Notes: a model not told the origin generated them from the letters alone. Positions 32,733-44,836 are shown, counted from the first letter of the stretch. The stretch is DNA of 64,000 nt from Methanobrevibacter sp. (GCF_017468685.1 NZ_JAFUHT010000034.1:7221-71220); one strand, 5' to 3'. Numbers and translations are program-made.

Positions 32733-33974
32733 ATGAAATTTGCACATTTAGCAGACACTCATTTAGGTTACCGTCAATATGGATTATTTGAACGGGAAAA
32801 AGACTTTTATGAAGTGTTTGATAAGGTTATAGATAAAATAATTGAAGAAAAAGTAGACTTTGTAGTACATAGTGGTGACTTATTTGAAACCGCAAGACCT
32901 TCACCTATGGCACTTTTGACTTTCCAGAAGGGGTTATTGAAACTTAAAGGTGCAGGAATTCCAATGTATGCAATTGCAGGAAACCATGATGTTGTAATGC
33001 GTAAGGGATCCATCCCGCCACATGTAATCTTTAAAAAAATGGGACTGAAAGTGATAAGTACAATCAATCCTACCTACATTCATGGGGACATATTTATCGC
33101 AGGTCTTCCATATTATCCTGCATCCCATGGAAAAGCATTAAAAAGCAAACTGGCAGAGCTTTCCGAAAAGGCAACCCACCATGAAAAGTCAATACTTGTC
33201 CTTCACCAGGGAATTGACCAATACTTCAATTTAAACTATGAACTGGAACTTGGTGAAATACCTGACAATTTTGATTACTATGCTTTAGGCCATATCCATA
33301 AGTATGTAAATGACACTTACGGTAAAGGCAGATTGGTGTATCCTGGTTCAGGTGAAATCTGGAAAACATCCGAACTTCCGGATTATAAAAAGAACGGTAA
33401 GGGATTTGTGGTTGTTGATTTCGATGGCACAAAACCAATTGTTAAAAGGGTAACTGTTGATATTCCCCGTGAATTCATAGAAAGGAATTTAAACTATAAT
33501 AATTTGGAAACAGATATTGCAGCAATTAAAGATACTATAAAAGGTTTCGATAAAAAACCGATATTGAAATTAACAATTAAGGATGTTGAATCAGATACCA
33601 GCAGAGTATATGAAATCATCAAAGAGGAATTGGGCGATTTGTCTTTAATGATCAGGCCTACTTTTATAATGGCTGGTGAGGAGATTGAACCAATTGATGT
33701 TGAATCTAAAAAATTAGGTCCAGAACAGCTCATAGAAAAATCTCTAGAAGGATATGGCAATAGTGAAGTCACTACACTTGCTATCGATTTATATCATCTG
33801 CTTTCAAAAGACAAGCTCGATGAATCACAGGAGATTATAAACCAATACTTTGATGCACATTACAGTAATGTAGTTGAAGATGTTGAATTTAAAACAGAGG
33901 AAGTTAAAAAACCACAACCTCCGGAGGAAAAAGAGGATGTACAAGTAACATTTAGCAAGGAGGTTTCAGAATGA
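32733..33974 (+). CDS. mre11: Mre11 nuclease
   Basis: ADTHLG, SGDLF, AGNHD, LGHIH phosphoesterase motifs. Confidence 0.95.
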   Translation: MKFAHLADTHLGYRQYGLFEREKDFYEVFDKVIDKIIEEKVDFVVHSGDLFETARPSPMALLTFQKGLLKLKGAGIPMYAIAGNHDVVMRKGSIPPHVIFKKMGLKVISTINPTYIHGDIFIAGLPYYPASHGKALKSKLAELSEKATHHEKSILVLHQGIDQYFNLNYELELGEIPDNFDYYALGHIHKYVNDTYGKGRLVYPGSGEIWKTSELPDYKKNGKGFVVVDFDGTKPIVKRVTVDIPREFIERNLNYNNLETDIAAIKDTIKGFDKKPILKLTIKDVESDTSRVYEIIKEELGDLSLMIRPTFIMAGEEIEPIDVESKKLGPEQLIEKSLEGYGNSEVTTLAIDLYHLLSKDKLDESQEIINQYFDAHYSNVVEDVEFKTEEVKKPQPPEEKEDVQVTFSKEVSE

Positions 33975-36717
33975 TTTTCACTAGGTTAAAGTTAAATAAT
34001 TTCAAATCACATGAACACACAGTCATATCATTTGATAAGGGAATAAGTGTTATTGTTGGTGAGAATGGTGCTGGAAAATCAACAATACTCGAAGCAATCA
34101 GCTTTGCTTTATTCAAACAGCATACTGGTAAAAAAATTGATGATTTAGTTAGAAACAATGCCAATTCAATGTCTGTGGAGTTGGAATTCACTTCCAACAA
34201 CAGGGATTATAAAATAATCCGTGTGAAAAAATCCAGTTTAAAATCATCTTTATTTAAAAGAACATCTTCAGAAGGAGGATATGTCCATGTTTGTACAGGT
34301 GACCGGGAAGTGGCTAATGAAATCCGTCAAATATTGGATATCGATTCTGACTTGTTCTTGAATGCAATTTATATTAGGCAAGGTGAAATCGCAGAATTGG
34401 TAGACAAAACTCCTTCCGAGAAAAAACAATTGATCGGTAAACTATTGGGAATCGATTCATTAGAGAAAGCCTGGAAGAGTTTACTTCCTTTCATCACAGA
34501 TTATGAATCTCAACGATCAGAACTTAGAGGCAAACTGTTTAACTCTGCTGAATTGATGGAAAGTTATAAGCACAAAAAGGCCGAATTGGAAGAGTTAAAG
34601 CAAAGAGGTCATGAATTGGAGGAACAGATTACTGAAGTCGATTCACTAATTAAAGAAATTTCTGAAAGTAAACGTAACATGGAACGGGAAAAAGAAATCT
34701 ATGAAACTCAACTTAACAATTTAGAAATGGAGAAAAAAACATTTGCTAAATTGGAAGAAGACAAACACAGAGTTCAGGAAGGTTTGGATCAAATCCGTGA
34801 AGCTGAAGAAAAAATTGAAAGGCTTGAAAAATACGTTTCCAAATTGGATGTTTATCTTGACTTTGAAAAATCTGTCAACAGCATTCAAAGATTAAAACAG
34901 GAAGAACAGGATATATTTGACAAATTAGATTCCATTTCTGAGCAAAAAGAATTACTTTTAAATAAAAAAGAGGGTTATAATAAATATTTATCTTCAGATG
35001 AAGAAATTAACAAATTAAACGATAAAAAGAATAATTTTGAAAAAGAATTGGCAACAATGGCTAAACTTGAAAAGGATAAAAAAGATTTGTTAAAAAACAT
35101 TGAAGATGAAAGGAATGATATTGAAAGTTTCTTCTCCAAATCTAAAGATAAATTGGATGATTATGGTCTTGACCAGGAAAAATTGGGTAAAATCGATGAT
35201 TTCAATCATCTTGAAAAATCAACTGAGGAGTTTAGAGATGAAACTTCCACAAAGATTGATGATTTAACAAAAGAAATCGTTGCCAAAAACGAAGACATTG
35301 TTGTTTATAAACAGAATATCAAGGCATGTGAAAAACCTTTAGTTGACCTGGAAGGCATTGACAATAAGTGTCCTGTTTGCCAGTCAGACATCAGCTCCTA
35401 TAAGAAAAAGGAATTAACCAAGCATTACAATAGTGAAATTAAGGAAAATCAAAAATTAATTTCAGAAAATGAAGAAAATGTCCGTTTGCTTACTAAAAAC
35501 AAGAATAGCTTTGAGGAAAAATTGGATAAACTCACAGAGTTGTCTAAAGATATCATTGAATATAAACACAAATTCGAACATTTGCAAAACGAGTTAATCC
35601 AGTTAAATAAGATGGATGAGGAATTGGAAGCAAAAGAATATATCAGCAATAAACTTGGTGAGTTGATATTGGTCATTGCCAATAAAAAAGAAGAACGTGA
35701 ATCATTTAAACAGGACCATGATTCATATATTCAATCTAAAGGTGCTTTGGATGTTTTAGGTAGTGAAACTGAAGCCCAATATAAACTAAAACAGGTTCAA
35801 AATGAAATTGACAATCATGTTGCCAATATCAAATTGGCCATTGAACAGGATCCTCATTTAAGCGGTGATATCAGCACTGCTGAGCTTAAAAATCGTATGG
35901 ATGATTTGAAACAGAAAAATGAGGAGTTCAACCAACTTAAGGGATTCATTCAAAATAAAAATTCATTGCTGACTCAATTGGATTCAATTAAAGAGGATAT
36001 TGGTGTTTCAATTAATCAAAAAGACATTATTGAAAATAAATTAAATGCTTCTTTATATGATGCAGATAAATATGAGCAAATTTTATACAATTTTGAACGT
36101 TATGAGAGAAGAAAAACCAATTTCAATGAGGAACTTTTCACTATTAAAGGACAGGCAAAAGAATCAATTGCTGCACTTCAGGATGTGACTGAAAAAATCA
36201 AAACCGCCAATAAGTTCAAACAGGAATATGATAATGTAGATGATTATATCAGTCTTTTAAAACATATTCGTGAAATTTATAGTCGTGGAGGAATTCAAAA
36301 AGAATTAAGAAAGATTTCACGTCCTACAATTCAAAAACACACAAAAGAGTTCTTTAAAGAGTTTAATTTCAACTACTCTGATTTAACTATTGATGATGAT
36401 TATGAAGTGACTGTTTATGGTCCTGAGGAGAATCATCAATCAGTATGGTTAGTGGTGGTGAAAAAATAGCTATTGCTCTTGCTTTAAGATTGGGTATTAC
36501 TCAGGCTTTAGCCAATGGTGAATTGGATACTATCTTATTAGATGAGCCTACAATTCATTTGGATGCTTCAAGAAAACATGAACTGATCAATCTGTTAAAG
36601 GAAATGTCTTCATTGCCTCAAATGATTATTGTAACTCATGAAGCGCAACTGGAAAATGCTGCAGATAATCTGATTAAGGTAGAAAAAGAAAATGGTATTT
36701 CAAAAGTAATAATGTAA
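33971..36717 (+). CDS. rad50: Rad50 ATPase, split by an apparent single-base deletion near 36427-36428
   Basis: GENGAGKS, YIRQGEI Q-loop, CPVC zinc hook, coiled coils; SGGE, LLDEPT and VTH motifs lie in the downstream frame. Confidence 0.93.
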
Positions 36718-36740: not shown

Positions 36741-37136
36741 TTACATTGTTTCCGGTGCATCTTTAATTGAGTCGATTATGCAATTAGCATTCCACCCTAC
36801 AATGGTTGCCGCATTTTCTTCAAGGACTTCTGGTACTTCTTCAACACCAATAGGTCTTACAAGTACAATCGGAATGTCATATTTTTTACTTGCATTTAAC
36901 AAATCATCAAACAGCTCCTTATTGTCGCTGTAAAGACCGGCTAACATTATTATCCTGTCAACTTTTTGGTAAAACTCTTCACCTGCACTAGCATAAGCTC
37001 CAGACATGGATTCTTTCCATAGAAAATCAGTTTTAGAATATAATTTTTCGGTAAACTGGCCGTATTCCTTATTTTTATCAAAACCGTTAGTGATTATTAA
37101 ATTATAAATTTTGTCATCTCTTTCGTCTTCAAACAT
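36741..37136 (-). CDS. MTH538-like TIR/flavodoxin-fold protein
   Basis: IMLAGLY, PIVLVRPIG.EEVP..L, IVGWNANCI pattern matches MTH538/DUF1863. Confidence 0.75.
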   Translation of the reverse strand: MFEDERDDKIYNLIITNGFDKNKEYGQFTEKLYSKTDFLWKESMSGAYASAGEEFYQKVDRIIMLAGLYSDNKELFDDLLNASKKYDIPIVLVRPIGVEEVPEVLEENAATIVGWNANCIIDSIKDAPETM

Positions 37137-37234
37137 TTAACCACCTTTGCTTTAAATATAACTCTCCTATTATAAAAATATTTATTAATTTAAAAATTTA
37201 AGATTATAATAGAATTATTTAGGAATTATTTTTT

Positions 37235-38518
37235 ATGAAAGCGGCTGTAATTGGATTAGGGGTAGAAGGTAAAAAGGCGGTAAACTCTCTTTTAAATCAT
37301 GGTTGGGAAGTTTATGCTACTGATTTGAATATTAATGTTGATTTATCCGGTTTGAATTTGCCAATATTGGATATGAATATGATTGAGGAAAAACAAACAG
37401 TTTCAATAGTTGGGGAAAAGATAACTGTTGATTTGGGATTTACCAATTCATATGCTATTGAAAGTTGTGATGCAATAGCTTTTAGCCCTAGTATGTATGG
37501 CGGGTCATTTGCTAATCGTTTATTGGAAGATGGGGATTTGTTAAGTGATGTTTTAGTAAAGCATAAGGATCTTTTCACTATTGGAATTACAGGAACTAAC
37601 GGTAAAACAACCACTGTTCACATGCTGAAAAGTATTTTAGAAAATGCCGGCAAAAAAGTTTTGGTTGGTGGAAACGGTGGTGGAGGATTTTCAGGTTATT
37701 ATGATTTGATTCTTGAAGCTGAAGAGGGAGATTATGATATCCTGCTTGTTGAAGTCTGTGACATGACACTGGATTTTGCCAATTACTGTTTTGATTTTGA
37801 TATGGTCGGTTTGACAAATATTGGCAATGACCATATGGATGTTCACAAGACCATTGCAAATTATAAAAACTCTCTTGTTAGATTTTTTGCTGATAAAACA
37901 ATATTCACTACATTTAATCAGGATTTTAACTCTGATTTTAAGGAATCTGCCAGTCAAAGCATTTCTTATTTTGCCTATCAGGATAAGCTTCAATTGGTTG
38001 GTGAGTTCAATTTGCTTAATGCAGGACTTGCAACTGCCATTGCCCGTGAGCTTAAAATCCCAAAAGATGTAATCAGATCCACACTTGAGAATTTTAAGGC
38101 CGTTCAAGGCAGATTAGATGTTTATAAAATCAATGATGCTGATGTGTATGTTGGAAAAACGGATAATTCTGATGCATTAGCTTCAGTTTTAGCTGAAAAA
38201 GACTTTTATGCGTTATTCATAGGTACTCCAAGACTTAATGAAATACACAGGCTGGATATTCTTGATGTTGCAGTTAAATATAATCCTGAAGTAATTGTTC
38301 TCTTCCCTGGTCTTGATGACACTTTAGATTTGGCAATTTACAGACTTAATTCATTAGGTTATATGGGCAATATCATAACCGTTAACACTCTTGACCAAAT
38401 TATTGAATTGGTTGCCGAGTATTCTCATGAAGAGGCTATTTTAATCGGTGGAAATGGTCAGGATGTTATTATAGATATTCAGGATAGAATTAAGGAAATA
38501 TCTGAAAAACTATTGTAA
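37235..38518 (+). CDS. Mur ligase family protein (MurD-like, likely pseudomurein biosynthesis)
   Basis: GLGVEG, GITGTNGKTT, GGN, TNIGNDHMD, N...A, GRL. Confidence 0.85.
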   Translation: MKAAVIGLGVEGKKAVNSLLNHGWEVYATDLNINVDLSGLNLPILDMNMIEEKQTVSIVGEKITVDLGFTNSYAIESCDAIAFSPSMYGGSFANRLLEDGDLLSDVLVKHKDLFTIGITGTNGKTTTVHMLKSILENAGKKVLVGGNGGGGFSGYYDLILEAEEGDYDILLVEVCDMTLDFANYCFDFDMVGLTNIGNDHMDVHKTIANYKNSLVRFFADKTIFTTFNQDFNSDFKESASQSISYFAYQDKLQLVGEFNLLNAGLATAIARELKIPKDVIRSTLENFKAVQGRLDVYKINDADVYVGKTDNSDALASVLAEKDFYALFIGTPRLNEIHRLDILDVAVKYNPEVIVLFPGLDDTLDLAIYRLNSLGYMGNIITVNTLDQIIELVAEYSHEEAILIGGNGQDVIIDIQDRIKEISEKLL

Positions 38519-38581
38519 ATCAATAAGCTTTTTATAATAGATTTGATATAATTAGATATGTATATTTTTTAGGTGTATTAA

Positions 38582-39769
38582 ATGAGTAACGGTTGGAGAA
38601 AAATTTCTATTGCAATATTAGTAGCATTAATTGTTTTATGCGCATTCCTTGCAGTTTTTACTTCTGCAAGTAATAATTATACTGCAGAATCCGTAGTCAA
38701 TCAATACAATCTTCCTATTGGCCAATCAATGTTTGAAAATCAATCTATTGTAGGTACAACAGATCCTGTAGAAGTTCCTTTAATAAGCAATTTCGGATTT
38801 TTAACACATCAACTTCAGGCATTTGATTTACAGGGCATGTTGATGGCATTTACAACAGGAGTTGTTCCATTCGACTTTTCTACTGTTGCAGGTGAAGGTA
38901 TTGATTCATATGGAAATGTAGTTGATGTTGAAGGTCCTGGATTTTTAACCTATGCTGGAGATAAACTGGTTGTAAAAGAGCCTGATAATTATGTATGGGC
39001 ATATAGTGCTCCATATAAATGGCTTGAAAAAACAGAATCTGGTGTAGATGTTTATGAAGATGGTAAAAAGATTAGATCTGTTCCTGTTGATGAAATTAGG
39101 GATTTGGAATATAGTAATGATTATTATAATGCTTCCACTATAGCCAGTTGGTATAATTATGATGCTGCAGTAGGTTCAACATTTACCTTGGAAAAAGGAA
39201 TGGTTGGCTTTTCTGATGGTAGAAATAATATCTCATCAAGTGATGTGCCTAAAATATTTGGTCAAGAAATGGTAGATTATGCATCTGAATATCCGACAGG
39301 TTCTCCAATTTTATTATATTCCGGAAATTACACTGAAGAATCAGGTGAAACTTATGGTACATCTTTAGGTTCACACCCTGAATATGGTGACTCAATTAGG
39401 GAAGTCAATGCAAGACAGTTTGTTGATGCATGGAATGGAACTGTTATCCCGCCTAATTCCACATCCAGTGGTAAGGATTATGTATACTTTGAGTCTGCAA
39501 GTGATGCTTCAGCTCCTGGTGGAAGTGCTGCACACGGAGTATGTCCATCTGCAAGGGCTTTAAGAGCAGCAGTAACTTCTGAAGGATTTGATTTGCCTGT
39601 GGGTATGACCTGGGATGAAGATGCAGTTTTATTCGGTTTCAATCCTGCTCAGGATATCACTGTATATAATAATCATGATTATCCTGTAAAAATTAAAATG
39701 TGGACTGAAGGCTCAGGTACTGGAATGGGTATTTATGCCAAAGTCGTAAGATATATTCCTAATGACTGA
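38582..39769 (+). CDS. Membrane-anchored exported protein with possible VanW-like C-terminus
   Basis: N-terminal TM; GVCPSARAL...DITVYNNHDYPVKI resembles the VanW G.CQ...DL.F.N....I.I pattern. Confidence 0.6.
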   Translation: MSNGWRKISIAILVALIVLCAFLAVFTSASNNYTAESVVNQYNLPIGQSMFENQSIVGTTDPVEVPLISNFGFLTHQLQAFDLQGMLMAFTTGVVPFDFSTVAGEGIDSYGNVVDVEGPGFLTYAGDKLVVKEPDNYVWAYSAPYKWLEKTESGVDVYEDGKKIRSVPVDEIRDLEYSNDYYNASTIASWYNYDAAVGSTFTLEKGMVGFSDGRNNISSSDVPKIFGQEMVDYASEYPTGSPILLYSGNYTEESGETYGTSLGSHPEYGDSIREVNARQFVDAWNGTVIPPNSTSSGKDYVYFESASDASAPGGSAAHGVCPSARALRAAVTSEGFDLPVGMTWDEDAVLFGFNPAQDITVYNNHDYPVKIKMWTEGSGTGMGIYAKVVRYIPND

Positions 39770-39792
39770 ATATATCTTTAAATTCTTTTTTT

Positions 39793-40446
39793 ATGTCTAT
39801 TTCTACAATCATTACTGCTGCTGGTAAGAATTCTCGTATGAGAAATGATCAGATTTCACGCGGTATCGAGTTGACAAATAAACTTATTTTACCTTTTAAC
39901 AATAAGACCGTTATAGAGACCACAATTGATAATGCATTATCCTTGAATATTGATGAATGTATTGTAGTACTTGGACATTATGCCAGTGAAATAAAGGAAG
40001 CTATTTTTGATAATTATAAAGATGAAGTAAAGTTTGTAGAAAACAATCCTGTTGATGTAGGTTTATCAACATCACTTTACAATGGTCTTTCAAATATTTC
40101 TTCTGATTTTGCTTTGTGCATTACCGCCGACCAGCCGACAGTCTCAGCCGAAACATTTAAGAAAATGATTGAAGTAAGCCAATCCTCAAAAAATCCATAC
40201 AAAACAATATCAATTTTGAGAAGAAGAAAAACCGGACTGTTGGATACTGCTGAAGGGTTGGGAATGCCTTTTGTAGCTCCAAGAAAAAACCTGATGAAAT
40301 ATCTTGAAAATGAAAATGATAATTTGAATCCAATACTTAGAAAGATATTTGATGATGGATATATATTTTATGGAATAAAAGAAAAAAATGAAAAAGAGTT
40401 ATTAAATATTAATCATTATGATGATTATCTAACTCTTTTAGATTGA
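39793..40446 (+). CDS. MobA/MocA-like nucleotidyltransferase
   Basis: ITAAGKNSRM, K.IL.F, ADQP, GMP, NINHYDDY. Confidence 0.8.
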   Translation: MSISTIITAAGKNSRMRNDQISRGIELTNKLILPFNNKTVIETTIDNALSLNIDECIVVLGHYASEIKEAIFDNYKDEVKFVENNPVDVGLSTSLYNGLSNISSDFALCITADQPTVSAETFKKMIEVSQSSKNPYKTISILRRRKTGLLDTAEGLGMPFVAPRKNLMKYLENENDNLNPILRKIFDDGYIFYGIKEKNEKELLNINHYDDYLTLLD

Positions 40447-41124
40447 TTCAAGTCCTTCAATAACTTCTTCGATTTTTGCCTTGCTGATGCCTATTGCCAT
40501 CTCTTCATCCTTGATGTCAGCCGCTTTTCTGGAACCGTCACAACCTAATGTGAAATTAATTCCATCTTCAAGATAAGGTTTTGAAAATGCATCGCCACAT
40601 AATGATTGAATACCTGCAAATAATCCGCAGGCTTTTTCACCGGATTTATAGACTAGGCTTTGTGCAAGTTTCATTCCGCCGACAGGTTTTGTAATAATTT
40701 GAATAACATCAGCTTCAAAATCAGCTTCATCTAAAGGAGCATAAATTATTGCCCATGATCTCTCTTCAATAATTGATAAATCTGCTGTTAATTTTTTTGC
40801 AGTTTCAATATCTTTAAATCTACCTAATGAGAAGTATTTTTCACCATTTGCTAGTTTTTCAGGCATATCTCTAAGTCCAATAGCTCCAGCTCCCCCTAAA
40901 CACATTTGCTGGTCAATTGTTGAGTAGAAAGTGTCTCCTAATGAAGCTTTTCTAACCATTTCACAATGCCTGATTTTTTCACCGATTAGCTCAATGCCTT
41001 CTGGAAGGTCATCTTCAGTTTTAACTAATTTCATTGCAACCGGTTTAGCATCAAGAGTGATTTTACTTTCGATTACTTCACAATATTTTTTGTTTTTCTC
41101 TAAATTATTAGTCAATACAATCAC
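40438..41124 (-). CDS. DUF169 family protein
   Basis: PVAMKL, RHCEMV, CLGG..AIG, CGD, LGCDGSR. Confidence 0.8.
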   Translation of the reverse strand: MIVLTNNLEKNKKYCEVIESKITLDAKPVAMKLVKTEDDLPEGIELIGEKIRHCEMVRKASLGDTFYSTIDQQMCLGGAGAIGLRDMPEKLANGEKYFSLGRFKDIETAKKLTADLSIIEERSWAIIYAPLDEADFEADVIQIITKPVGGMKLAQSLVYKSGEKACGLFAGIQSLCGDAFSKPYLEDGINFTLGCDGSRKAADIKDEEMAIGISKAKIEEVIEGLESI

Positions 41125-41142
41125 CTTTGATAATATGTTTAG

Positions 41143-42375
41143 TTAAGGAATTTTAATATCTTTTGTTTTAACACTGTTATTTTTACAGAATGTTTTAAAA
41201 TCACATGCATTACAGGTTCTTTCATCCGAATCTGCTTTCCAGGCCTCCTGAATTTTACAGCCCTTAATCTCTTTAATTAAGGAACTTTCAATATCAAAAA
41301 CAACATCATCAAATCTGTTAAGTGAATCATCGATTTGTTTATCGTCAATATTGATTATACGAATTGACCTTGCAATTTTAAACTCTTCACTTAACTCCGG
41401 TGCCTTATCATCTTCGTTCCAGTTCATAATCAACTCAACATCATTTGCATATTTACTGTAGTCAATAGCACTATCAGTTCTGTCCTGTGCAATCTCTTCC
41501 TGTATTAAAACCAAATCCTCTTTTGAAGGAACAAGCTCATTTAGATAAAATATTATTCCTGCAAATATAGGTTTTGCATCTTCCTGGCGGCTTCTAAGCC
41601 ATGAATATGTTAGGATTTGCTGTTTATGATTTTCCCATGGATTGGTAAATTTATTGATACTCTGTTCAGGAGGTCTTTTCATTCCTTTATAATCAATGAT
41701 GATTTCGTATTCATCCCCTTCGCTGAAATTTGTGATTTTTTTTCTGAATTCGGGATCTTTTTTGAGAAATTCTATAATCTTGTTATTGTAATTATCCAAA
41801 TTGCTTTGAGTAAGATTTTTATTAATTTTCATTGAGCTTAAAACGTCAACAACACCGTTAATGCCGTAATAGTTGGATCTGCTGACATTTTCATCATAAT
41901 TTGGCATTTTTCTAATTCCCTTAATCAGAAGTTCTGTTGAATCAATCAGAGGAAACAAATGAGGTCCCCAAACATTGATGGCTTTTTCTGCTCTTGCACT
42001 GGCTAATTTCTTATGGTCGTGTTCATTCAAATCCTCAATGGTCAAATCGCTATTCATCAGACTGTAAAACAAATCCTCATCATAAGGGTAAAGCCCGTCC
42101 ACCTGCAATCTAACGTCAATCATGTCCTCAATCGGGCGAATATCCTCTTTCCAGTTCCAAGGAAACTCCTTATTGTTTGTGTCCCATTCAAGATAAGCCT
42201 CTTCCAAAACGCCATGAATGAATTCTCCAAACCATCTTTGAACAGGTTTTGAAGGAGGAAGGGTTCCTTTGTTTTGATAGCGATATTGCAGATTGCATGT
42301 GAGAAATGACAGCAAATCTCCAGTTAGACTGTATTCTGGAATTATATATGATTTTGATCTTGAAGGTAATTTCAT
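41143..42375 (-). CDS. PD-(D/E)XK RecB-family nuclease with Fe-S staple (AddB/Cas4-like)
   Basis: N-terminal Cys (FLTCNLQY), FG...H, GVVD, IDYKG, QILTY, C-terminal CNACDFKTFC. Confidence 0.85.
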   Translation of the reverse strand: MKLPSRSKSYIIPEYSLTGDLLSFLTCNLQYRYQNKGTLPPSKPVQRWFGEFIHGVLEEAYLEWDTNNKEFPWNWKEDIRPIEDMIDVRLQVDGLYPYDEDLFYSLMNSDLTIEDLNEHDHKKLASARAEKAINVWGPHLFPLIDSTELLIKGIRKMPNYDENVSRSNYYGINGVVDVLSSMKINKNLTQSNLDNYNNKIIEFLKKDPEFRKKITNFSEGDEYEIIIDYKGMKRPPEQSINKFTNPWENHKQQILTYSWLRSRQEDAKPIFAGIIFYLNELVPSKEDLVLIQEEIAQDRTDSAIDYSKYANDVELIMNWNEDDKAPELSEEFKIARSIRIINIDDKQIDDSLNRFDDVVFDIESSLIKEIKGCKIQEAWKADSDERTCNACDFKTFCKNNSVKTKDIKIP

Positions 42376-42385
42376 AATTAATCTC

Positions 42386-44836
42386 CTATATTAAGTAAAT
42401 TTCATTAAATCCGTGATATTTTTCATCTCTGCTCCATCCGACGGCAACATTAGGTATGTTGAAGTGGTCTTTTTTACGTGTATATCCTTCAATCGCTGAA
42501 TTTAAACCCACCAACAGCAATACACTTTCTGCTCTTGAAAATGCAACAAAGTAAAGGCGTGTCAAATCATCGAACGAGCGGTCCTTTTCACTTCTTTCGG
42601 ATTCGCCCAATTCACTGTATCTGCGTATGGTGTCTTCGATTGTAATGTTTTTGGCAGATTTTTTCGGGAATCTTAAGTGCTGTGTTTTGATGTTGTTGTC
42701 TTTAAACTTCGAACCCACATCAACAATTACTAATGGAAATTCCAATCCTTTTGACTGGTGTATTGACAGAACATTCACCCTATCATCAGGCAGAGTTTCA
42801 AGTAATGATTCATCAATTTGTATTCCTCCGCTTGCAAGTGGAATGAAAATGTTCCAGATGGCTTCTAAAATTGATTCCTTTTCAGTTTCCTTATTGTAAA
42901 ATGAAATGTTTGAATAGTATTTGCTGAAAAAACCGGTCTGCGTAATGGATTTGGTAATCGCTTCAAGATAAACTATTCCTTCAACATCATCCTGCAGTTC
43001 ATCAATCCAAGTAACTAGTTTGTATGCAAGCTCCATTAGGCTGGCTTTTTGTGGCCATTTGTCACTTCCCCTTGGAATTCTATTCTGCCAGTAAAGGACA
43101 AATTGGCTTAAGTTAATCGGTTCGTGAGGTTCTGGGTTTAGTTTAATGTATTCTCGTGCACGGACTCTCCATCTGGTCATTGTAACCTTTGCAAGATTCG
43201 GAATAGTTTTGTCACTTAACTGAATTTTGCTTTCAGGGTCAATGCATTCAAGCATCAGTCCGCAGAATATTTCCACAATTTCAACCTTTTGAAGTTCAAT
43301 GCCTCTTGGATTAAAGACTTCAATTGGATTTCTTTGCTTTTTTAAATGTCTTCTCAAGTAATATAAAAGTGAATTGTTCCCAAACTGTTTTTCTTTAGGA
43401 GAATATGACAATATTGCAACATCTGATGCGGATCCGTATTCATCATCTAATTTGAGGGTCAGCCTTTCAATTCTTTTTCCCTGCTTTTCACGCTCCTGAT
43501 TAATCTGCTGTAATCTGGCAATATCAATGTTTCCATCAACTTGTCTGAAATAATCTTCATCAAGGACTTTTAAAACCTTAGGATGCACTTCTCCTTCATT
43601 GATAAGTTTTGAAAGTAAGTTGGACAATGATTTTGACAGCATCTCCACATTGTTTCTAAAAAGTCCCAGTATTGGCATTGTGTCCTTTTCAAAATCAGGG
43701 GCTATGATTTTTGGTTTGTTTTTAACCCTTGCAAGCTGATAATCGTCATCGAGTTCAACAAAATGATTGCAAAGGTTGATGATGTTGTCTGTTGAACGGT
43801 AATTAGTTTTAAGATTGATTTCTTCTACATCAATCCCCAATTTATCATTCGCACGTTGCTTATAATTGGTGAATAAATCTACAGTAGCTCCTCTGAAACG
43901 ATAAAGGGATTGGTCATCGTCTCCTACAACTGTAATATTTCCATTGTTTTTAAGTGCGGATTTTGCAATTGTGAAATAGATTTCTTCCTGAATCAAATTG
44001 GTGTCCTGATATTCATCGATTAAAACGATTTTAACATTATCTAAAAATAAATCCAGTCTGTTTTCTTTAAGCATTGTTAAAAATCTAGATTCAAGGATTG
44101 TAAAATCCATTGTATTTCTCTCGATTAGCAAATCCCTATATTTCTTAATGCAATTCAGTGTGATTTCCATTCCTTTATCATGAGTTATCTCTTTAGATAA
44201 CTCATCAATGTCTAGCTTGTCCTGATAGATTCTGTCTTTAATTACAAGTAAAATTTCACTCATTTTTGATGGTTCATCAAATTTTTCTCGGCCTGTCAGT
44301 GTTTTAAGGAATTCCTGAAGAGCTTCGTTTTTATATAATTCATTTTCACTTAGAATCTTTATCATTGCGGAGTTTGAAACAAATTTTTCTATGACAATTG
44401 GATTGTTGGTTCCGGGCTCTTTGTTTTGCCTCATTATTTCTTCTGCCAACTTATCGATTGTCCCAACTTTTATCTGGTTAAAGTCAATCCGATTTACATC
44501 TCCAATCAGGTCAAAATCATCTGTACTGTCAAATATATGATTTTTAATTTCATCTCCCCAGCCCAGGATTCTTGAATATAATTCTTCTGCCGCTTTTCTT
44601 GTAAAAGTTGTTGCAAAAATCTCTTCAGGATTGATGTCATCAACAAATATGAATTTTAATATTTTTAACACCATTACGGTAGTTTTTCCGCTTCCGGGAC
44701 CTGCAACCAAGAATAATGATTCATTTGCTTTGGCGATAATTGCTTTTTTTTGGTCTTCATTTGAAGAAATGTCTCTTTCAAGTACTTTCACTACAATCTC
44801 TTCAAATTCTTCTTGAGTAATCATTTTTTCCCTCAC
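42386..44836 (-). CDS. UvrD/PcrA superfamily 1 DNA helicase
   Basis: AGPGSGKT, TFTRKAA, DEYQD, GDDDQSLYRFRGA, NYRS, SIHQSKGLEF, YFVAFSRA. Confidence 0.92.
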   Translation of the reverse strand: MREKMITQEEFEEIVVKVLERDISSNEDQKKAIIAKANESLFLVAGPGSGKTTVMVLKILKFIFVDDINPEEIFATTFTRKAAEELYSRILGWGDEIKNHIFDSTDDFDLIGDVNRIDFNQIKVGTIDKLAEEIMRQNKEPGTNNPIVIEKFVSNSAMIKILSENELYKNEALQEFLKTLTGREKFDEPSKMSEILLVIKDRIYQDKLDIDELSKEITHDKGMEITLNCIKKYRDLLIERNTMDFTILESRFLTMLKENRLDLFLDNVKIVLIDEYQDTNLIQEEIYFTIAKSALKNNGNITVVGDDDQSLYRFRGATVDLFTNYKQRANDKLGIDVEEINLKTNYRSTDNIINLCNHFVELDDDYQLARVKNKPKIIAPDFEKDTMPILGLFRNNVEMLSKSLSNLLSKLINEGEVHPKVLKVLDEDYFRQVDGNIDIARLQQINQEREKQGKRIERLTLKLDDEYGSASDVAILSYSPKEKQFGNNSLLYYLRRHLKKQRNPIEVFNPRGIELQKVEIVEIFCGLMLECIDPESKIQLSDKTIPNLAKVTMTRWRVRAREYIKLNPEPHEPINLSQFVLYWQNRIPRGSDKWPQKASLMELAYKLVTWIDELQDDVEGIVYLEAITKSITQTGFFSKYYSNISFYNKETEKESILEAIWNIFIPLASGGIQIDESLLETLPDDRVNVLSIHQSKGLEFPLVIVDVGSKFKDNNIKTQHLRFPKKSAKNITIEDTIRRYSELGESERSEKDRSFDDLTRLYFVAFSRAESVLLLVGLNSAIEGYTRKKDHFNIPNVAVGWSRDEKYHGFNEIYLI

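Follow-up and report, generated by a model that had tools for sequence, protein, structure and literature searches.

We analysed a 64,000-nt stretch of DNA from Methanobrevibacter sp. (GCF_017468685.1 NZ_JAFUHT010000034.1:7221-71220; referred to below as the window, in which all positions are counted), focusing on three genes at 37235-40446: a Mur-family ligase (pMurD2), a protein of the Mfer335 family (PmurA) and a MobA-like nucleotidyltransferase of the Mfer334 family (PmurB). The trio is almost certainly the published pseudomurein Gene Cluster 1, also called cluster B, of a Methanobrevibacter, and as a cluster it is already known and ordinary. The interest lies in PmurA and not in the operon. 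Nearly all genomes searched from the window's phylum encode PmurA within this operon. We found that the C-terminal domain of PmurA is very probably a remote homologue of VanW. In C. difficile, VanW domains act as L,D-transpeptidases that use a Cys. By extension, the best overall explanation, which we hold with middling confidence, is that PmurA, encoded in a known stem-peptide operon, is a candidate for an enzyme of this kind (a transpeptidase or a peptidase) acting on pseudomurein outside the cytoplasm. No pseudomurein cross-linking enzyme has been identified, and unclustered transglutaminase-like proteins are the only candidates postulated in the literature. In the literature searched, we found no paper linking pseudomurein with VanW; of four co-occurrences of the two terms, the two inspected were incidental, one being the author name Vanwonterghem and the other a text in which VanW did not appear.

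The VanW-like domain covers PmurA residues 270-395 (39389-39766, + strand) and was located by several techniques: sub-threshold Pfam matches, ESM Atlas, hhalign, the order of structural elements in AlphaFold2 (AF2) models and a comparison of PDB neighbours. No Pfam family matched PmurA at E <= 0.01, and the top match below threshold was VanW (PF04294; 12.3 bits, E = 0.12), confined to residues 346-379. Among 17 PmurA relatives, VanW was the sole Pfam family matched by more than one protein (3/17, best E = 0.047). A six-frame genome scan gave a longer alignment: in the PmurA homologue of genome G178, VanW model positions 2-129 of 130 aligned to the C-terminus with 16.2 bits. When PmurA residues 265-395 were submitted to ESM Atlas, VanW was found in 22 of the 30 nearest clusters (score 0.93, 189 shared features).

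True VanW proteins were gathered from two genome-scan contigs and 80 bacterial loci, and the PmurA family was aligned to 21 VanW proteins with hhalign. The alignment (P = 5e-4, score 36) extended over 101-102 columns, pairing PmurA 270-379 with VanW 71-201, and placed Cys321 of PmurA opposite the catalytic Cys131 of VanW. Identical conserved residues were found at eight paired positions (PmurA/VanW): N276/N77, P291/P92, G297/G103, G319/G129, C321/C131, G341/G171, N363/N185 and W374/W196. In a column-shuffle test the real alignment scored 29.2 against a null mean of 13.2 (sd 2.3, maximum 21.9), and none of the 200 shuffled VanW alignments reached the real score. The VanW-like label that the earlier note had given to the middle gene is therefore borne out in the form of a remote C-terminal domain with a conserved Cys, detected by hhalign and below threshold in Pfam.

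The predicted structures gave a similar picture. The AF2 model of PmurA had a mean predicted local distance difference test score (pLDDT) of 87.9, exceeding 90 over most of the C-terminal domain, and a predicted template modelling score (pTM) of 0.77; the model of a true VanW protein had a pLDDT of 81.9. At the aligned places both models run through the same elements in the same order: first a helix, then two short strands and a hairpin, next a helix with the Cys at its start, and finally three strands. Cys321 is the first residue of PmurA helix 321-333, and Cys131 is the second residue of VanW helix 130-142. We also aligned both models, in an unbiased manner, to 48,161 PDB chains, using this alignment solely to compare the PmurA model with the true VanW model, and found that 22 of the top 50 chains were identical. 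These common neighbours were nearly all ribosomal large-subunit protein chains (Z 4-5.5), and they matched approximately residues 250-395 of PmurA and 45-213 of VanW.

Other searches did not return relatives of known structure. Foldseek of the PmurA model gave no match in the PDB at E <= 0.001 and none among the BFVD viral models. A PmurA profile searched against PDB sequences produced chance-level matches only, the best being a myosin-tail-interacting protein (E = 0.024). The PDB searches yielded no solved structure of VanW, and VanW has been reported as a fold without solved relatives (PMC11348318), with which the lack of a convincing PDB match for both models agrees. In a phmmer search of 1.84 billion representative proteins, PmurA found 52 relatives with no sign of VanW among them, in a library that carries neither names nor Pfam assignments; a single-sequence search thus does not bridge the two families. 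The PmurA family is small and narrow, and its named relatives were Methanobacteriaceae, Methanobrevibacter or less specifically labelled archaeal metagenome-assembled genomes (MAGs).

The putative nucleophile, Cys321, lies in an invariant motif, H318-G-V-C321-P-S-A-R325-A-L-R328 (39533-39565, + strand). The G-V-C motif singled out in the earlier note was found here as G319-V320-C321, within AHGVCPSARALR, and its Cys is invariant in the family. We found the pattern HG.CP..R.LR in all 131 full-length PmurA members and a non-Cys variant in none. An alignment of 17 diverse members (25-94% identity) retained 19 invariant columns only, seven of which belong to this one motif (H318, G319, C321, P322, R325, L327 and R328). 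In the PmurA of the window, Cys321 is the only Cys outside the membrane helix.

That helix occupies residues 8-26 (38603-38659, + strand; Kyte-Doolittle 19-mer score 3.17, DSSP helix 4-28), where the N-terminal MSNGWRK is followed by a strongly hydrophobic stretch. A hydrophobic segment was present at the N-terminus of 130 of the 131 full-length relatives. In the set of relatives scored for charge, the mean net charge was +2.45 before the segment and -1.54 in the 15 residues after it. As these flanking charges fit the positive-inside rule, PmurA is, with good confidence, predicted to have a type II signal anchor (N-in/C-out) that would leave approximately 365 residues outside the cell. A membrane insertion domain was noted in the PmurA family by Subedi et al. 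(PMC10117817), and the export of the middle gene product proposed in the earlier note agrees with the signal-anchor helix found here. Between the anchor and the VanW-like Cys domain, the 395-residue protein has two N-terminal domains, predicted to be extracytoplasmic (approximately residues 40-135 and 137-260), with an invariant FSDGRN-type motif containing D212 and R214. No recognisable relatives of these two domains were found in the PDB-sequence profile search or in the alignment to the 48,161 PDB chains.

Taken as a pathway, the three proteins could act as follows. PmurB, a cytoplasmic MobA-like nucleotidyltransferase, would make or handle the UDP-glutamyl starter, and pMurD2, a cytoplasmic ATP-dependent Mur-type ligase, would add one residue to the UDP-linked stem peptide. 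PmurA would not be a cytoplasmic kinase; it would be anchored in the membrane with a divergent VanW-type domain facing outwards. By analogy with VanW, Cys321, located at a helix N-terminus as in VanW and preceded three residues earlier by the invariant His318, would attack a peptide bond of the exported pseudomurein stem peptide, forming a thioacyl-enzyme and releasing the terminal residue. The thioacyl intermediate would then be resolved either by the amine of a neighbouring stem, giving a cross-link, or by water, resulting in trimming. That PmurA is a Cys acyl-enzyme acting on pseudomurein peptides seems to us evenly balanced, and Cys-dependent cross-linking by PmurA is put forward as a hypothesis. 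A role as the main pseudomurein cross-linker is more doubtful.

Conservation of the locus was assessed in other genomes. The PmurA model (NF053640) was tried on 301 genomes from a sample of the window's phylum and matched 279 of them (212 of the 223 with high quality), but none of 14 control genomes; the panel included four archaea without pseudomurein (M. jannaschii, M. acetivorans, H. volcanii and S. acidocaldarius). PmurA was directly followed by PmurB on the same strand in all 30 loci inspected from other genomes, and pMurD2 was directly upstream of PmurA in 19 of the 30. The co-conservation of the genes in pseudomurein producers, on which the earlier note had made its proposal depend, was observed for PmurA and PmurB in these loci. 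The phyletic profile it had suggested as a check gave a mixed answer: the wide distribution across the sampled phylum and the absence from controls held, while PmurA was not found in two genera whose cluster is otherwise retained.

Several results weigh against PmurA being a VanW-type enzyme of the wall. PmurA is not a Pfam VanW member, as its 12.3 bits fall short of the PF04294 gathering threshold of 27 bits, and the hhalign probability for the PmurA-VanW pair was approximately 30%. In the VIA-align comparison with 48,161 chains, no solved structure scored above Z 5.5 for the PmurA or the VanW model, which is below the level of a shared fold. PmurA has no conserved His or Asp opposite VanW H152/H154 and D156/D161, and the segment is shorter in PmurA; these VanW residues are conserved in our alignment of VanW proteins and are likely counterparts of the published Cys-His-Asp triad. 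Lupo et al. reported no transmembrane segment or signal peptide for the PmurA orthologous group (PMC11915815), and recombinant PMurA has been reported to degrade ATP (Cha et al. 2026, PMC12996149).

The two genera without PmurA also belong here. With the NCBIfam model we detected PmurA in none of eight genomes of genus g5 (the Methanobrevibacter boviskoreani / AbM4 group), several of them 99% complete, and in none of six genomes of genus g25. Our own PmurA family profile gave no match at E <= 1 in five of these genomes (G015, G033 and G082 of g5; G146 and G210 of g25). Both genera belong to the same family as the window's genus and keep pMurD2, pMurC and PmurB (loci L124-L128). In g5 the order is pMurD2-pMurC-PmurB with no gap for PmurA, and in g25 PmurB directly follows pyrF. 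The gene standing in the place of the upstream pMurD2 was identified at one locus only, L125 of a PmurA-less genome, in which pMurC precedes PmurB. An artefact of N stretches was considered as a cause of the missing gene in g5 and is unlikely: such stretches were 1.5-6 kb, none occurred in g25 and none lay around the PmurB loci. These findings contradict the published statement that Mfer335-like genes are invariably present in pseudomurein methanogens (PMC10117817), and they are a caveat that is new relative to the literature we read. Since the two genera retain pMurD2, pMurC and PmurB, PmurA cannot be the sole, universally required cross-linker. We would only tentatively propose that PmurA is the long-sought pseudomurein transpeptidase, a highly divergent archaeal VanW-type Cys enzyme with a relocated catalytic His, and that the clades lacking it use a back-up enzyme.

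The same absences bear on the alternatives. PmurA could be only a hydrolase or remodelling enzyme (a carboxypeptidase, an endopeptidase or an autolysin) that uses the same Cys chemistry without making cross-links. Its dispensability in two genera is a better fit to accessory trimming than to an essential cross-linker, the VanW proteins Ldt4 and Ldt5 show carboxypeptidase activity as well (PMC11348318), and transglutaminase-like proteins are still the cross-linking candidates of the literature. We nevertheless consider a purely hydrolytic PmurA unlikely, as the gene lies almost universally within the biosynthetic operon, adjoining PmurB in 30/30 loci, and not with lytic or recycling genes. For phosphoryl transfer at the start of the pathway the loss of the gene is a greater difficulty. 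In that proposal (Subedi 2021, Cha 2026) PmurA would act as a glutamate kinase or NTPase and supply PmurB with Glu-gamma-phosphate. It draws on the adjacency of PmurA and PmurB in every locus examined, on the naming of the PmurA family by Subedi et al. as a candidate for the phosphoryl-transfer steps (PMC10117817) and on the degradation of ATP to ADP and AMP by recombinant PMurA (PMC12996149), in a study whose authors did not detect Glu-phosphate (PMC12996149). A gene for the first committed step would hardly be expected to be absent from a clade that has all ligases and PmurB; because all downstream steps are retained, the PmurA-less genera argue even more strongly against this role than against cross-linking. 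The predicted topology would moreover put the bulk of PmurA outside the cell, where there is no ATP. Neither Pfam nor NCBIfam returned a kinase or NTPase family for PmurA, and a Walker A-like string occurred in one of 131 relatives and is not conserved, so that the sequence gives no support to the claim of an NTPase domain in PMurA. We regard the kinase as highly unlikely, and an extracytoplasmic transpeptidase or peptidase fits PmurA better.

It could also be argued that the likeness to VanW is convergent or spurious and that PmurA is a non-catalytic assembly, scaffold or binding factor. Each single measure is indeed sub-threshold (12 bits in Pfam, 30% probability in hhalign, Z of approximately 5 for the PDB neighbours), and PmurA does not conserve the catalytic His and Asp of VanW at the corresponding positions. 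Six independent lines of evidence nevertheless converge on the same domain boundaries and the same Cys, and the invariance of H318, C321, R325 and R328 in 131/131 members is typical of an active site, which makes a non-catalytic PmurA clearly unlikely in our view. If PmurA is instead a Cys transpeptidase, its chemistry and location would equally suit the attachment of other cargo (a surface protein, an S-layer or an adhesin), in the way that YkuD enzymes link Lpp to murein or that sortases act. Methanobrevibacter genomes encode many wall-associated adhesin-like proteins (PMC10117817), but the PmurA family is single-copy and present also in genera with few adhesins. No candidate substrate gene was conserved beside PmurA in related loci and nothing we tested pointed to a protein substrate; we give cargo attachment a very low probability. 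An extracytoplasmic transpeptidase or peptidase acting on the stem peptide itself is the explanation we prefer.

Should PmurA prove to be a Cys transpeptidase or peptidase of the VanW type, the final stage in building the archaeal wall would become open to direct tests, and there would be good reason to reconsider its published role as a glutamate kinase. The evolutionary connection of murein with pseudomurein would then extend from the cytoplasmic steps (Mur ligases, MraY) to an extracellular one, and bacteria and pseudomurein methanogens would share an ancestral wall cross-linking domain. PmurA would also offer a specific target on the cell surface of Methanobrevibacter from the rumen and gut, organisms that attract interest in connection with methane mitigation.

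The identity of the three genes was established with curated models. The open reading frame (ORF) listing gave three + strand ORFs with exactly the outer ends and the common orientation claimed in the earlier note: 37235-38518 (427 aa), 38582-39769 (395 aa) and 39793-40446 (217 aa), separated by 63 and 23 bases. All three exceeded the curated NCBIfam equivalog cut-offs, which confirms a pseudomurein cluster with a Mur ligase, and for this reason they are real, conserved genes and not chance ORFs. The main inference of the earlier note is thus correct, although the note did not recognise the cluster as one already described. The first, pMurD2, a Mur-family ligase of the pseudomurein stem peptide, matched NF053647 with 617.8 bits (cut-off 550; residues 1-419 on model positions 1-405 of 405) and Mur_ligase_M (PF08245, 1.7e-21). 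Its P-loop, GTNGKTTT, is found at residues 120-127, within GITGTNGKTTT of the translation. PmurA matched NF053640 with 531.5 bits (cut-off 400; residues 16-393 on 1-378 of 378). PmurB matched NF053639 with 331.4 bits (cut-off 260; residues 4-212 on 1-209 of 209). The nearest named homologues of the trio were from Methanobrevibacter.

PmurB contains a MobA-like NTP_transf_3 domain (PF12804, 6.7e-19), in keeping with the label it had received in the earlier note, and an N-terminal nucleotide-binding loop, TAAGKNSRM. Assignment of PmurB as a molybdopterin enzyme was considered and rejected: the MocA model (TIGR03310) gave 85.6 bits against a cut-off of 186.45 and the MobA model (NF001457) 35.7 bits against 164, so that by family PmurB is neither. 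Cha et al. 2026 reported nucleotide-dependent activity of PmurB on UDP-Glu-type substrates (PMC12996149), which lends support to the suggestion that the nucleotidyltransferase could activate a precursor.

The trio is flanked by minus-strand genes, at 36741-37136 upstream and at 40438-41124 downstream, the latter overlapping the last 9 bases of PmurB, and thus stands as a unit of its own. The divergent intergenic region upstream of pMurD2 (37137-37234, + strand) was read directly; it is AT-rich, 98 bases long and presumed to hold the promoter and leader of the operon. It contains a TATA-like TTATAAAAAT at 37170-37179 and a GGA-rich stretch approximately 10-13 bases before the pMurD2 ATG.

The operon lies among DNA-repair genes: Mre11 and Rad50 are encoded upstream of it, and on its downstream side there are genes for a PD-(D/E)XK nuclease and for a helicase of the UvrD type. 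The 131-aa ORF at 36741-37136 (minus strand), divergent from the operon, matched no Pfam or NCBIfam family. The minus-strand genes at 40438-44836 comprise a DUF169 gene (PF02596, 8e-57) that is convergent with the operon, followed by the PD-(D/E)XK nuclease (410 aa) and a UvrD/AddA-like helicase (816 aa). The Rad50 gene (33971-36717, + strand) is in two ORFs of 832 aa (33971-36469) and 90 aa (36445-36717) with a 25-base overlap. The frame changes just ahead of the ABC signature motif (MVSGGEKIA), and the two pieces jointly span the Rad50 models end to end; the split is either a true frameshift or an assembly error.

True VanW (PF04294) genes were also looked for in the 301 Methanobacteriota genomes and were found only at two loci, L034 (G238:C103) and L035 (G235:C93), both on short contigs of MAGs that are 82-84% complete. 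L034 is 100% identical to a contig of a Clostridium sp. MAG (L044), and it is probably a bacterial contaminant in the bin rather than a VanW of archaeal origin. L035 encodes P0176 (L035:214-1140, minus strand), a divergent VanW-domain protein with an N-terminal signal peptide and an SH3-like region, in which Ser replaces the catalytic Cys (NGGLSQVATSLY). P0176 may be a Ser-nucleophile or an inactive variant of VanW.

Compared with known systems, the locus as a whole shows no essential difference from the published cluster. Gene Cluster 1 of Subedi et al. 2021 comprises Mfer336/337, Mfer335 and Mfer334 (PMC10117817), and cluster B of Lupo et al. 2025 comprises a Mur ligase (OG0001150), an uncharacterised protein (OG0001147) and a MobA-like protein (OG0001146) (PMC11915815). 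The window agrees with both in its three families, their order and their orientation, and all three genes score above the curated cut-offs. The upstream ligase is pMurD2 in the window, whereas in 11/30 other loci pMurD2 is not upstream. PmurB shares the MobA-like Rossmann NTP-transferase domain (PF12804) with MocA/MobA and with MurU, to which its similarity has been reported (PMC12996149), and differs from MocA/MobA in that its family is specific to the pseudomurein cluster.

Among wall enzymes, PmurA can be compared with the YkuD and VanW families. The local S/A-H-G-x-C of PmurA is reminiscent of the YkuD motif, S-H-G-C, and YkuD (PF03734) is likewise a Cys/His wall cross-linking enzyme. In the PmurA model, however, the domain is alpha+beta and the Cys is the first residue of a helix, not part of a loop in a beta-sandwich. 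A YkuD reading was also tried by profile and rejected, no match being obtained at E up to 10 for PmurA or at E up to 1 for 17 relatives. The VanW and YkuD folds have been reported as unrelated (PMC11348318). In C. difficile, the VanW domains of Ldt4 and Ldt5 act as Cys-dependent L,D-transpeptidases with additional carboxypeptidase activity and a Cys-His-Asp triad (PMC11348318). The N-terminal domains of PmurA differ from those of VanW proteins, its host is archaeal and its substrate would be an all-L, isopeptide-rich pseudomurein stem. Around the Cys, VanW has GGGxCQ and PmurA has HGxCP, with the invariant His318 three residues before Cys321. The two nevertheless have in common an extracytoplasmic, membrane-anchored location (predicted for PmurA), the same order of secondary-structure elements and a Cys at the start of the central helix.

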